DNA of 64,000 nucleotides from Truepera sp. GTDB taxonomy: Bacteria > Deinococcota > Deinococci > Deinococcales > Trueperaceae. Shown here piece by piece: positions 5,660 through 27,594 of this stretch. Position 1 is the first letter of the stretch; every line of letters starts with the position of its first letter. The notes beneath the pieces were generated by a model. That model was not told the DNA's origin. It saw nothing but the letters and a program-made list of their open reading frames with translations, and searched no databases. The position numbers and the translations under genes are program-made. The stretch is taken from the NCBI GenBank assembly GCA_965218435.1, contig CBDCKW010000009.1, forward strand, positions 3,392,001 to 3,456,000, given 5' to 3'.

Positions 5660-6672
5660 CCGACGGCTTTATCATCACCTTCGTCAAGGCGCTCGTGCTG
5701 TGCGCCGTGCTGCTCGGCGCGTTCGCCTATATGACCGTCATCGAACGCAAAATCTTGGGCCGGATGCAAAACCGTTACGGCCCCAACCGCGTCGGCCCGT
5801 TTGGACTGTTGCAACCCATTGCCGACGCCATCAAATCCATCTTCAAAGAAGACATCGTGGTGTCGGCGTCCGACCGCTTTGTCTACTTTATCGCTCCCTT
5901 TATCAGTATCTTGTTCGCGCTCTCCGCCTTCGGTGCGATTCCGGCAGGACCGGCAGGCAGTTTGTTCGGCTTTAACCCGTGGATCGTGGACCTCGACGTC
6001 GGTCTCCTGTACGTCTTTGCCGCCACAAGTATCGGCGTTTATGGAATTTTTCTGGCAGGTTGGTCGTCAAACAGTAAATATTCGCTTCTAGGCGGTCTCC
6101 GCTCCTCGGCGCAGATGATCTCGTATGAGCTGGGCTTAGGTTTGTCGGCGCTGACGATTATTCTGATTGCGGGGACGCTCAACTTGCGTCAGATTGTGGA
6201 CTTTAATGTCTGGTCGCTCAGTCCGCTGTTGTGGCTTCCGCTCGCGGTGTCGTTTGTGACCTACGTCATTTCGTCGGTCGCGGAGGTGAACCGCACGCCG
6301 TTTGACCTGCCTGAAGCCGAACAAGAGATCGTCGCGGGGTATCTGACCGAGTACTCGTCTATCAAATGGGCGCTCTTTCAGATGGCCGAGTACGTCAACA
6401 TGATGACGGCGGCGGCGTTTATCAGTACACTCTTCTTAGGCGGTTGGCGCGGACCCGGCTTTTTAGACGCCGTAATTCCAGGTATAGCCGAGTGGCCGTT
6501 CGTCTGGCTGCTGTTAAAAATGGCCATCTTCATGTTCTTGTTTATCTGGTTGCGGGCGACGTTGCCCAGATTTCGCTATGATCAGCTGATGCGCTTTGGG
6601 TGGATTTGGCTGTTTGAAATTGCGCTCTTTAGTGCGCTGGTGACGGGCGCGATCATCGCGTTCGCCCTTTAG
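5656..6672 (+). CDS. nuoH: NADH-quinone oxidoreductase subunit H
   Basis: [47 protein letters not shown]. Confidence 0.97.
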
Positions 6673-20376: not shown

Positions 20377-20961
20377 CTAAACAACGCACCGTCTAAAGCC
20401 GGTGGGTTTGGAAGCCACTGAAAGTGTCCTTCCAGGCTCAAGCCTGCTTGCAACCTCTACTCACTAATCTTGAAGTTCTCTTCGGGCGGCGCTTCATCAG
20501 GCGCTTCGATATACGCCTTGACCTGCTCGTCTGTGACCGTTCCGACCGTCGCACAGAAGTAACCTCGTGCCCACAAGTGTGGTCCCCAGTAACGCTTCTT
20601 CAAATGTGGAAACTCTTCTTGCAACAGCCGTGACGAGCGCCCCTTAAGATACGGCATCACTTTCGCTGGACTCAGGCTTGGCGGACATGATACCAGCAAG
20701 TGAACATGTTCTTTGCTAACGTGCCCTTTGAGTATCTTGATGTCACGGCTCATACAGCTTTGTCTGATAAGTTCCCTGGCTCTTTCGGCAACCTCACCGC
20801 GCAACACCTGGTAGCGGTACTTCGTCACCCAGACAAAATGGTACTCGATGTCGTAAATCGTGTGTGCGCCCGTTCGATACTCTGCCACCAGAGCGTCATC
20901 GTAGCAGCCCCTGCTAAAGCTGTTCGCCTATAGGCGAAGGTTTTAGACCTGGCGCGTGGAA
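20377..20961 (-). mobile_element. IS200/IS605-family element, tnpA only
   Basis: Y1 transposase flanked by imperfect subterminal hairpins (about 20384-20407 and 20914-20946); exact ends are inferred. Confidence 0.85.
20457..20888 (-). CDS. tnpA: IS200-type HUH (Y1) transposase, possibly degenerate
   Basis: YHFVWVTKYR, EHVHLL (HUH), LKGRSSR, LWARGYF. Confidence 0.92.
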   Translation of the reverse strand: MAEYRTGAHTIYDIEYHFVWVTKYRYQVLRGEVAERARELIRQSCMSRDIKILKGHVSKEHVHLLVSCPPSLSPAKVMPYLKGRSSRLLQEEFPHLKKRYWGPHLWARGYFCATVGTVTDEQVKAYIEAPDEAPPEENFKISE

Positions 20962-24449: not shown

Positions 24450-25034
24450 TCAGCGGCCTGCTTCGACCCGGAGCCCGTCTTCGCCCAGGTAGGTCACCGC
24501 GGCTAGCGAAACGACTGGAACACGGAGGCTAGCGAGTGCTTGACGTCCCCCTTGAAAGGTCTTTTCTACGACGCAGCCGACCCCCAACAGTTCGGCCTCG
24601 CAGCGGCGAATCAGCTCAGCGAGCGCCAAAATCGTCTCGCCCGAGGCTAAAAAATCGTCTATCAGCAGGACCCGGTCGCCCGCCGTGACGTACTCGGGGG
24701 AGAGGTAGAGCGGCGTCACGCCGCCTTTGGTACGGCTGGGGGCACTCGCGCTGAGCGCGTCGGGCATCGTAACCGGGCGCTTTTTACGGGCGTAAACGAC
24801 TGGGACACCCAGCGCGACGCCGGTTGCCAGCGCGGGCGCGATGCCGCTCACCTCAGCGGTGACGACTTTGCTGACGTCCGTCACGCCTAGCGCAGCGAAG
24901 CGCTCAGCAAACGCTCGTCCTAGCTCGAGCGTCAAGTCGGGCTCGAGCCGGTGGTTGATAAACCCGTCAACTTTTAAGATATTGCCTTTTAGTGCCCGAC
25001 CTTCTGCAGCAATGCGCACAACCAAACGTTCCAT
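24450..25034 (-). CDS. xpt: Xanthine phosphoribosyltransferase
   Basis: ILKVDGFINH, TAEVSGIAPA, VLLIDDFLASG, VVEKTFQGGR. Confidence 0.9.
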   Translation of the reverse strand: MERLVVRIAAEGRALKGNILKVDGFINHRLEPDLTLELGRAFAERFAALGVTDVSKVVTAEVSGIAPALATGVALGVPVVYARKKRPVTMPDALSASAPSRTKGGVTPLYLSPEYVTAGDRVLLIDDFLASGETILALAELIRRCEAELLGVGCVVEKTFQGGRQALASLRVPVVSLAAVTYLGEDGLRVEAGR

Positions 25035-25419
25035 ACTCCCTAGCGTAACGGTTCAGTAACCCGGTTGGGTGGTCCTCGAGCCTTATTACCCAAACTCAGC
25101 ACAAACCCCTGTCTCCAAAATAGTGCATCCAGTAATCAAGCTAAACCCAGCTGGAAACGTCTTAATAAACGCTGTAATCAAAAACCTGCACAAGTTGCGT
25201 ATTTTCTACCAAACTGGTAGACTTAATGAATTCAACCGACCGGTAGCACTTTTCGGAAGGCTATGCTAGCATTGTGTCGGGCCGGACAGTTGGCCGGGTA
25301 CTAGTGCCCGGTATACTACCTCCAGCCGCACGAACGGTCCTCTACCGCGCACACGAGTCCCGCTTCGTTCAACCTACCTAAATCTGCGCGAACTTACCTA
25401 CCTATTAGGGGGAAACACA

Positions 25420-25590
25420 ATGAAAAAATTAGCTCTTCTTCTGTCCATCGGTGCTCTTCTTGCTTTCGGCGCAGCTCAAACCATGTCGGGTGGCATGATG
25501 TCGGGTGGCATGATGTCCGGCGGTATGATGTCCGGCGGTATGATGTCGGGTGGCATGATGTCCGGCGGTATGATGTCGGGTGGCATGTAA
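25420..25590 (+). CDS. Small secreted methionine-rich peptide, MKKLALLLSIGALLAFGAAQT(MSGGM)7; absent from the ORF track
   Basis: AGGGGGA RBS 6 nt before ATG, Sec-type signal peptide, seven 15-nt units differing only at synonymous sites, downstream terminator. Confidence 0.88.
   Translation: MKKLALLLSIGALLAFGAAQTMSGGMMSGGMMSGGMMSGGMMSGGMMSGGMMSGGM
25483..25587 (+). repeat. 7 x 15-bp coding tandem repeat
   Basis: Units ATGTCGGGTGGCATG (x4) and ATGTCCGGCGGTATG (x3). Confidence 0.97.
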
Positions 25591-25610
25591 GCCGGAGTAA
25601 CATCCGTTGG

Positions 25611-25640
25611 GGGGCGCTGGGTTACCGGCGTCCCTTTTTT
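25611..25640 (+). terminator. Rho-independent terminator after the Met-rich peptide
   Basis: GGGGCGCTGG-GTTA-CCGGCGTCCC stem followed by T6. Confidence 0.85.
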
Positions 25641-25780
25641 ATTGTCTAGTAGTTTACGAGGACCGGTTACCCAAGTAGTTGTTGCCACAAACACTGTTGC
25701 CAATGCCGTGACAGCCATGTACCGGCTGACACACCGGCGGTAGCTAGCCGAGCAGCGAGCACCTACGGTAAAGTGGCGGG

Positions 25781-26350
25781 GTGCCGAGTGGACGCGCCCA
25801 CGAATCAATCAACCTGCTGGTTTACGGGGCAGCCGCAGTCTTATACGCGTATGCACGGCAAGAAGGCTTAACAGCCGAGTTCGACACTGTTCTTGCACCG
25901 CAAACGCTTAAAACGTTTACCCTCAGCTACCTCGTCGGGACATTTCTGGTTACGCCGGACCTTGACCTGGCTGAAAACCGGGTGCAGGCGCGGAACAACT
26001 GGGGGCTGCTGGGGCTGCTCTGGGTTCCTTACGGCGCACTCTTTAGCCACCGCGGACTCTCACACACTTGGATTGTCGGGCCGCTGACGCGGCTACTCTA
26101 CCTTGCAGGTCTTGGTTTGGCGTTCTCATGGGCAGCGGCGCAGGTCGGGCCGTACTTCGGTTATGGGTTTTCGTTCTCCGCTAAGCTCTCGCAAAACTGG
26201 CCTGAGCTTGCCACTGGCGCGTTGGCAGGGTATTACCTGTCGCAGTGGCTACACTTGCTAGCTGACGGAATTCGCCCGGATCACGGGTTTAAGCGGAGTA
26301 GTAGAAACAAGCGCGGCTCGAGGCGCACCCCCAAACGCTCGAGACGCTAA
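25781..26350 (+). CDS. DUF2227-family putative metal-binding membrane protein
   Basis: MPSGRAH, PDLDL, HRGLSHT...G..TR..YL and WLHL.AD motifs; TAAAGT 6 nt before GTG. Confidence 0.8.
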   Translation: MPSGRAHESINLLVYGAAAVLYAYARQEGLTAEFDTVLAPQTLKTFTLSYLVGTFLVTPDLDLAENRVQARNNWGLLGLLWVPYGALFSHRGLSHTWIVGPLTRLLYLAGLGLAFSWAAAQVGPYFGYGFSFSAKLSQNWPELATGALAGYYLSQWLHLLADGIRPDHGFKRSSRNKRGSRRTPKRSRR

Positions 26351-26469
26351 CCTCTCAGTCTGGTTTGGACGCCTAAAGCAACGCTCGGAGTAACCGAGTG
26401 TAAAGTGCTTGAAGGTAAAGCGTTGGGCGCAAAGTCCCGGGTGCAAAGTGTCGCGTGGTATCTTGTGCC

Positions 26470-27594
26470 ATGACCCAAAAAATGACGACAAAATCCGCAT
26501 GGACGTCCCCAGTCGCCATCTTTACACTTTGTTTGTTTATACTGTGCGCGGCGCTCGGCTCGGCCTCGGCGCAAGCTGCCCCTAAAAGCTCGTGGACCTG
26601 CCCGGAAGGGTTTGCCGGACAAAAGCTCAACATCTACAACTGGACGAGTTACATCGCCGAGGACACGGTCCCTAACTTTGAAAAGCTCTGCGGGGTTAGC
26701 GTCACTTACGACACTTACCCGAGTGAAGATGACCTCTTGGCGCGGATTCGGCAAGGGAACCCCGGCTACGACATCATCGTTCCAAGCGGGGTCGTGACCT
26801 CTCCGCTGATTGCCGAAGGGCTGTTAGAGCCGCTCGACAAGTCGAAAATTCCCAACCTCGCCAACCTCAACACCTCGCTGTTAGACCAATCCTTTGACCC
26901 CGGTAACGAGTACACCCTGCCGTATCAGTGGGGGACGGTCGGCATCGGCTACAACAAAACCAAGGTCGGGGCCGAAGTGACCGGTTGGGCCGACCTGTTT
27001 GCGTACGACGGACCGGTGGCGTGGCTCGAGGACATTCGGGGCATGATGGGGACGGCTTTAGTCATGCTCGGCCTGGACCCCAATACCAAAAGTCCCGACG
27101 AAATCGCTCAGGCCCGCGATTACCTTGTAGATCACGGTAACAATGTCGTCTATATCGCCCAAGATGACGGTCAAGAGGTGCTTGCTCGGGGCGAAGCTGA
27201 TATGGTGATCGAGTATTCCGGTGACATCTTTCAGATCATGGACGAGTGCGGTTGCGACGACTACGCTTACGTGATTCCCAAAGAGGGCGCGTATTTTTGG
27301 GTGGACAATATAGCAATTCCGGTCGGGGCACCCAACAAGGCGCTCGCCGAGGTCTTTATTGACTACCTGCTCGACCCGCAGGTGGGCGCGGACCTGTCGA
27401 ACTACACCGCTTACGGGTCACCGAACCAGGCTGCCATCGACCAAGGGCTGATTGACCAAGACCTGCTAGACGACCCCGCCATCTATCCACCGGCTGACGT
27501 TGAGAAACGGCTCTACTCGATTGTCAACGACCCTGAGCTCGAGCGGCTCTACAACGACGCGTGGGACGAAGTAAAAATCTACGTCGGCGGTTAA
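26470..27594 (+). CDS. potD: Polyamine ABC transporter substrate-binding protein (PotD/PotF-like)
   Basis: Signal peptide; LNIYNW..YI, GYDIIVPS, PYQWGTVGIGYN, WVDNIAIP. Confidence 0.85.
   Translation: MTQKMTTKSAWTSPVAIFTLCLFILCAALGSASAQAAPKSSWTCPEGFAGQKLNIYNWTSYIAEDTVPNFEKLCGVSVTYDTYPSEDDLLARIRQGNPGYDIIVPSGVVTSPLIAEGLLEPLDKSKIPNLANLNTSLLDQSFDPGNEYTLPYQWGTVGIGYNKTKVGAEVTGWADLFAYDGPVAWLEDIRGMMGTALVMLGLDPNTKSPDEIAQARDYLVDHGNNVVYIAQDDGQEVLARGEADMVIEYSGDIFQIMDECGCDDYAYVIPKEGAYFWVDNIAIPVGAPNKALAEVFIDYLLDPQVGADLSNYTAYGSPNQAAIDQGLIDQDLLDDPAIYPPADVEKRLYSIVNDPELERLYNDAWDEVKIYVGG

Follow-up and report, generated by a model that had tools for sequence, protein, structure and literature searches.

The 64,000-nucleotide stretch of a Truepera genome analyzed here (assembly GCA_965218435.1; hereafter the window) carries a small gene for a peptide composed of a signal-like N-terminus and tandem units of the sequence MSGGM. 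Comparative analysis confirms that this gene is real, selected and unnamed, its export being predicted from the signal-like N-terminus. The core of the unit, Ser or Thr followed by two glycines ([S/T]GG), is not a repeat private to the peptide but a tag on many unrelated exported proteins, and at most of its loci the peptide gene lies close to a gene encoding a Wzy_C-domain enzyme. The system is probably a new variant of bacterial O-glycosylation. More specifically, we lean toward the view that an undescribed O-oligosaccharyltransferase (O-OTase) recognizes [S/T]GG as its acceptor sequon, with the peptide serving as a minimal carrier of glycans at multiple sites. The strongest support comes from three non-homologous carriers encoded beside the enzyme and from the acceptor-like neighbors of its distant relatives. 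G000 denotes the genome of this window; other G, L and P numbers denote other genomes, fetched regions and proteins, and g and f denote genera and families.

A conserved gene for a repeat peptide

An earlier description of this DNA made without database searches (the sequence-only reading) had proposed a 56-codon open reading frame with an AGGGGGA ribosome-binding site, a signal-like N-terminus, seven repeat units and a terminator, and each of its counts, including the composition of the mature peptide, was correct (Table 1). The predicted mature 37-mer contains 14 Met, 14 Gly and 7 Ser, with no charged residue and no His or Cys. In the terminator region, none of 200 shuffled sequences folded as stably (z = -3.8).

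Pattern searches of 128 genomes of the family Trueperaceae, along with one metagenome scan, yielded 12 stand-alone peptide loci. Nine are at the xanthine phosphoribosyltransferase gene xpt (G000, G123 to G126, L270, L279, L283 and L292) and three are beside dnaK in genus g13 (G022 to G024). The metagenome scan returned 25 loci, comprising 4 stand-alone peptides, 2 CHRD proteins and 19 that were dropped as unrelated or as matches to Cys or Arg codons; pattern matches in G006 (the linker of a DnaJ-like protein) and G013 (a Trp codon) were set aside as incidental. The reading frame was kept in all 12 loci, with four to seven units each at a spacing of four residues (10 times) or five (45 times). 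No frame-disrupting repeat change, which the sequence-only reading had considered damaging to its case, was found among them. Across the 67 units the Gly-Gly was fixed, preceded by Ser in 38 and by Thr in 29, and Met occupied position -1 in 62; Met made up 24 to 38% of the mature part in every peptide. The M-K-K and A-Q of the signal peptide were invariant (12/12), the peptides terminated in M, G, N or Q, and the promoter-like elements, ribosome-binding site and leader were also conserved among orthologues. The repeat units of the window are of two synonymous kinds, in the order A A B B A B A, which had earlier been read as a sign of selection. Selection on the peptide is supported by the conserved frames of the orthologues and not by the two variants alone, because slippage produces those too.

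The exact 56-amino-acid protein was absent from a collection of 15 billion proteins. A profile search (E ≤ 0.001) recovered 26 proteins of 22 to 105 amino acids, all with a signal sequence and [S/T]GG repeats (25 read there plus the G126 peptide); none is functionally named, and one is labelled "hypothetical protein." One database match, P0029, continues into unrelated sequence after three units. Neither Pfam, NCBIfam nor the ESM Atlas returned a family match to the peptide, in agreement with the earlier statement that it belongs to no recognized named family. A literature search, without most subscription papers and without supplements, found nothing on the peptide, the motif or the enzyme clade.

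[S/T]GG tags and a linked Wzy_C gene

Tandem M[ST]GG units occurred 8 to 22 times per genome in 11 genomes of genera g1, g13 and g14. They were seen once in each of 2 genomes from another family and were absent from the remaining 351 of the 364 phylum genomes. The carriers encoded in 40 regions around such matches are CHRD, fasciclin, Lipoprotein_15, SurA/PPIase, cyclophilin, alkaline phosphatase, collagen-like and unnamed helical proteins. Where the start is visible, almost all of them have a signal-like N-terminus, and in the tags A, V, E, Q or D often takes the place of Met. In G000 we counted 25 tandem [ST]GG in predicted exported proteins (1.63 per 10,000 amino acids) against 12 in "cytoplasmic" ones (0.14), where the two classes come from heuristic gene and signal calls and several "cytoplasmic" carriers are visibly exported proteins that were mis-sorted. 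The control tandem AGG was found once in exported and three times in cytoplasmic proteins. Tandem GG[ST] was found 6 times compared with 25 for tandem [ST]GG, an enrichment about fourfold greater for the latter, while single GG[ST] was enriched like single [ST]GG (15.8 versus 16.4 per 10,000 amino acids). The conserved feature is a hydroxyl residue and two glycines in disordered parts of exported proteins; it is not Met.

Several further properties of the tagged proteins were recorded. Their C-termini (L063-L102) are mostly G-N, S-N, D-N or D-Q in g13 and g14 and often G-M in g1, a possible C-terminal signal; the G000 predicted exported proteins that end in Met number three, all of them tagged and all ending in G-M. 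An unnamed helical domain of ~110 amino acids, with no convincing Pfam match, recurs among them (L102:4022-4459, L071:5076-5606, L079, L082 and the C-terminus of L069); it is fused to alkaline phosphatase and, in g13, encoded beside the peptide. Finally, g1 has a conserved three-gene unit (G000:C9:3551759-3553770, L101; also L004 and L005) that encodes an extracytoplasmic function (ECF) sigma factor, an anti-sigma factor and a secreted CHRD protein bearing a Met-rich SGG tag.

A Wzy_C (PF04932) gene lies within two genes of the peptide gene in 8 of the 12 loci, in two different syntenies. In G022, G023, G024 and G123 it is the immediate neighbor, whereas one gene intervenes in G124, L279, L283 and L270, the last of which is cut by a contig end. 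In G125 (L095:5146-5565 and 6336-6575), a ninth locus, a 5' Wzy_C fragment follows the peptide gene; xpt is apparently frameshifted there. The close enzyme clade (E < 1e-100) was present in 14 of the 128 family genomes, with 9 more showing weak matches only, and it was present in all 11 tag-rich genomes. The other three enzyme-positive genomes (G027, G028 and G090) were missing from the tag-rich set because the search pattern required Met; each encodes an exported protein with 12 to 16 TGG units directly beside the enzyme. These proteins are EF-hand-like in G027 and G028 (three loci) and SCO0930-like in G090, and are not homologous. The G090 genome is unpublished, and both the g27 case and the count of 14 rather than 13 positives depend on it. 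Of the 14 enzyme-positive genomes, 13 reached at least 5 matches to in-frame period-5 triplets, as did 3 of the 114 enzyme-negative ones, at a threshold chosen after seeing the data; G090 scored 0, its period being 6. A TGG-pair pattern was rejected, its controls being about equal to the signal; what counts for G027, G028 and G090 is therefore the translated proteins. The EF-hand-like protein (L111:3177-3755, L113 and L128) is also Met-rich, carries 15 or 16 TGG units, and has a weak, below-cut-off similarity to lanmodulin.

We also considered whether [S/T]GG could be a lineage-specific flexible linker, a self-associating low-complexity unit, the site of some other modification or a site where proteolysis frees short peptides, with the Wzy_C protein an inherited neighbor acting on polysaccharide. 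Gly/Ser/Thr linkers are common in exported proteins, the single-unit frequencies given above fit such a role, a few isolated arrays of TGG or SGG are present in genomes without the enzyme, and the enzyme linkage has been lost in 3 of the 12 loci. We nonetheless judge it quite unlikely, given the excess of tandem [ST]GG over tandem GG[ST] and the presence of the enzyme beside three non-homologous tagged carriers. Unit lengths of both four and five residues in a single peptide, moreover, speak against a defined processed product.

Candidate O-glycosylation and the role of methionine

An AlphaFold model of the enzyme (pLDDT 74.7) matched only WaaL at E ≤ 0.001 (PDB 7tpg, E = 1.1e-5), while a PDB sequence search with the enzyme profile gave no match. 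Two Arg and one His (R273, R344 and H434) are invariant in 16 enzyme sequences and, judging from the surrounding motifs, are likely equivalents of the WaaL catalytic residues. The enzyme thus resembles the known O-OTases TfpO, TfpM, PglS and PglL in its Wzy_C domain, WaaL fold, conserved Arg/His and position beside an exported candidate acceptor. It differs from PglL and PglS, which have PglL_A and Wzy_C_2 domains: all five linked enzymes examined matched PF04932 only, with no PglL_A or Wzy_C_2 match at E ≤ 0.01. The closest named enzyme records are labelled Truepera or Trueperaceae and, as possible duplicates of sampled genomes, were not counted separately; L171 was left out of the enzyme tree because of wrong coordinates, and the tree entry L219_cyanoX corresponds to L228.

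An exported candidate acceptor adjoins the enzyme at 8 of 12 peptide loci, at 4 further TGG-protein loci and among more distant relatives, but not in G000. All 7 loci of family f5 have the homologue directly behind a gene whose translation begins like a type IV pilin, and in 75 distant loci, mostly cyanobacterial, it follows a PEP-CTERM-like gene in 54 of the 71 that could be scored with a loose regular expression. This gene order is the layout described for O-OTases in the accessible parts of PMC3643930 and PMC12645811. Pilins of T. thermophilus are O-glycosylated on Ser, by a transferase that the available text of PMC7203116 and PMC13039148 does not name. In genus g13, where the enzyme is beside the peptide, LpxC was found in none of 3 genomes (96 to 99% complete). 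A WaaL O-antigen ligase would depend on lipid A-core synthesis; with LpxC as the one marker searched, the enzyme was retained in these three genomes and absent from the majority of the 114 that have LpxC, and G000 has LpxC. The mostly cyanobacterial Wzy_C subfamily (L158-L232) lies a few bases behind its PEP-CTERM-like genes, often in several copies per genome, and its members are candidate dedicated transferases.

According to Table 1 of PMC12645811, as far as that source was accessible, TfpO and TfpM modify a C-terminal Ser/Thr, PglS a Cys-flanked ComP loop and PglL undefined Ala-rich regions; the sequons that have been defined are long or lie at a terminus, and the general O-glycosylation system of PglL lacks one. 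The targets of PglL also include disordered stretches in many exported proteins (PMC12645811, PMC3643930 and PMC9829042, in the parts available). None of these sequons is a short tandem [S/T]GG unit, and the same parts of these papers mention no acceptor made of sequon only. The 12 peptides, with their M, G, N or Q ends, also lack the C-terminal Ser/Thr described for acceptors of TfpO and TfpM.

In the mechanism that we propose, Sec would export the peptide, the signal would be cleaved, and in the periplasm a lineage-specific Wzy_C O-OTase would transfer an undecaprenyl-linked glycan to each S-G-G Ser of the unstructured mature part. In G000 the likely enzyme would be an unlinked paralogue (G000:C9:1932594-1934144, minus strand). 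[S/T]GG would be a portable sequon that the lineage has placed, as single copies or tandem arrays, in tails and linkers of numerous exported proteins. The peptide would then be a mucin-like sequon array without a folded domain, its presumed benefit being a hydrated, Met-containing glycopeptide added to the envelope. Eukaryotic mucins, serglycin and antifreeze glycoproteins likewise combine a signal peptide with a tandem Ser/Thr-Gly-type repeat to form a dense glycan scaffold; the resemblance is one of analogy only, with no homology, and for the peptide we propose bacterial en bloc transfer instead. A broader version of the proposal is plausible, though we hold it with some reserve: an undescribed class of Deinococcota O-OTase may read a three-residue, position-independent, tandem-repeatable [S/T]-G-G, part of the Trueperaceae may have placed this tag on a large share of its exported proteins, and a dedicated "mini-mucin" peptide built entirely of such sequons may use its Met as an envelope oxidant sink as well. 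If so, an internal sequon of three residues that can be repeated would allow glycoproteomes to be predicted from sequence and could provide a compact multi-site glycotag for glycoengineering. It would also be a first entry point to general protein glycosylation in Trueperaceae and to the related enzymes behind pilin-like and PEP-CTERM-like genes. The peptide itself exemplifies how easily tiny exported genes are overlooked.

A number of observations weigh against glycosylation by this enzyme. The Wzy_C domain is common to ligases, polymerases and OTases and cannot separate them (PMC3643930, accessible part), so gene context must decide the class; one public record of the clade, P0010 of Truepera radiovictrix, is named O-antigen ligase or polymerase, and G000 has seven Wzy_C-family genes in addition to LpxC. 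Linkage is incomplete: the peptide loci of G000, G126 and L292 hold no trace of the enzyme, the unlinked G000 copy falls in a sister clade of paralogues, and tagged neighbors are lacking for the members of that clade, for the second g1 paralogue and for the enzymes of g14. Where peptide or tagged gene and enzyme do adjoin in g13, g15 and g27, they are convergent and not co-transcribed. The enzymes of the positive genera group at only 83/92 support; these genera may be one lineage, in which case the co-occurrence may reflect a single ancestral event. A looser triplet pattern allowing out-of-frame gaps did not discriminate (112 of 128 genomes). Among the distant relatives, only 4 of 11 PEP-CTERM-like neighbors tested pass the TIGR02595 cut-off, and the f5 and cyanobacterial partner proteins carry no tandem [ST]GG array, so the enzyme clade is not inherently specific for [S/T]GG. 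Finally, a glycan carrier leaves the retention of Met unexplained.

The sequence-only reading had placed Met at the center of the peptide's function. This view is weakened by the sharing of [S/T]GG among proteins in which Met is often replaced, but Met is kept in the peptide, leaving room for a second role in redox or metal chemistry. One such possibility is that the main role is sacrificial, as in MrpX and BcrX, with Met absorbing hypochlorous acid and reactive oxygen species in the envelope and S-G-G spacers keeping it exposed; this could coexist with glycosylation. The high and consistent Met content, its regular place before Ser or Thr, and the finding that the peptide is the only small Met-rich exported open reading frame found in G000 all fit, and MrpX and BcrX, described in the accessible text of PMC4436054 and PMC8315932 as charged Met-rich peptides in msrPQ operons under ECF sigma control, provide a precedent. 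Like them, the peptide is small and Met-rich, with a signal peptide (by eye here) and a pentapeptide-like repeat. However, their MXKDX repeat is charged (44% of residues in MrpX, according to the part of PMC4436054 available) and their operons adjoin an ECF16 pair, whereas the peptide has no charged residue and none of this context. The msrPQ and cop genes that the sequence-only reading had looked to as companions were not recognized beside any of the 12 loci, nor was any other msr or an ECF gene; the conserved neighbor is Wzy_C, whose linkage an oxidant sink does not explain. An MsrQ-type domain scored above cut-off in none of the 8 peptide-bearing genomes, compared with 41 of the 128 family genomes, in a search that did not extend to MsrB or DMSO-reductase-type enzymes. 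The three molybdopterin-domain proteins of G000 score 40 to 62 bits against an MsrP cut-off of 207, leaving it without an MsrP equivalog, and its single MsrA lacks a signal peptide. The peptide is therefore not a member of the MrpX/BcrX family. It may still work like one, since Met is kept in every copy and a Met-tagged CHRD protein stands behind an ECF pair, but as its main role we consider this unlikely. Separately, G000:C9:3807842-3809409 (minus strand) encodes a sulfite-oxidase-family molybdoenzyme with a Tat-like N-terminus (3807842-3809002), preceded by a small open reading frame with an SGG tandem at its end.

Met-rich Cu(I) sites are well established, and paired Met thioethers of the peptide could instead buffer Cu(I) or Ag(I) in the periplasm. 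Its Met density would suit this role, and the metagenomes contain unrelated exported proteins with similar MMSGG runs (L274, L280, L286 and L293). No copper gene was recognized at the 12 loci, however; a crude motif scan located a single CopA-like gene, ~283 kb away, the peptide has no His or Cys, and neither the conserved Ser/Thr nor the Wzy_C linkage would be accounted for. A metal buffer is thus improbable.

Leader, neighboring genes and coordinates

Upstream of the peptide gene, the motif TG-n-TA-nn-AT is present at the corresponding place in all nine xpt-type loci, and the -10 box of the candidate sigma-70 promoter is kept in 5 of 5 aligned genus genomes and not evident in L270, L279 or L283. 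ECF control of the peptide gene was considered and set aside; no sigma gene lies nearby. In the leader, 96% of 126 cells were paired across the nine xpt-type loci. Covariation was not above that of shuffles, and we therefore do not claim a riboswitch. An Rfam search over 24900-26500 gave three weak matches, all below the gathering score, two of them on the terminator and none over the leader. The xpt-type leaders, candidate H-type pseudoknots, have a further hairpin over the ribosome-binding site; those of g13 form a simple 5' stem-loop instead.

Table 1. Positions of the peptide gene, its signals and its neighbors in the window
Feature	Position	Strand	Remarks
Exported [S/T]GG-repeat peptide gene	25420-25590	+	56 codons, 56 amino acids; translation predicted
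Ribosome-binding site AGGGGGA	25407-25413	+	6 nt before ATG; kept in aligned orthologues
Sec-type signal peptide, 19 amino acids	25420-25476	+	cleavage before Gln predicted by eye
Seven MSGGM units	25483-25587	+	7 x 15 nt; each Ser a proposed O-glycosylation site
Intrinsic terminator	25609-25643	+	stem 25609-25636
Candidate extended -10 element TG-n-TAGCAT	25264-25272	+	putative promoter role
Candidate sigma-70 promoter TTGGCC - 16 nt - TATACT	25290-25317	+	predicted from sequence
Conserved 5' leader, two crossing helices, candidate pseudoknot	25330-25390	+	25330-25337 with 25360-25368; 25346-25351 with 25385-25390
Xanthine phosphoribosyltransferase gene (xpt)	24450-25034	-	context; divergent; syntenic marker; TIGR01744 above cut-off; adjoins the peptide gene at 9 xpt-type loci
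DUF2227 membrane protein gene	25781-26350	+	context; relatives have a Wzy_C gene just before or after it; the window has none

LpxC was found in 114 of the 128 family genomes, being missing in g13 and g32, and was not found in the Thermus or Deinococcus controls. In G000 its gene lies with lpxA-, lpxD- and fabZ-like neighbors, as judged from their N-termini (G000:C9:346585-352655). Elsewhere in the window, positions 20457-20888 (minus strand) hold an open reading frame that we take, from its sequence, to resemble an IS200/IS605 transposase.
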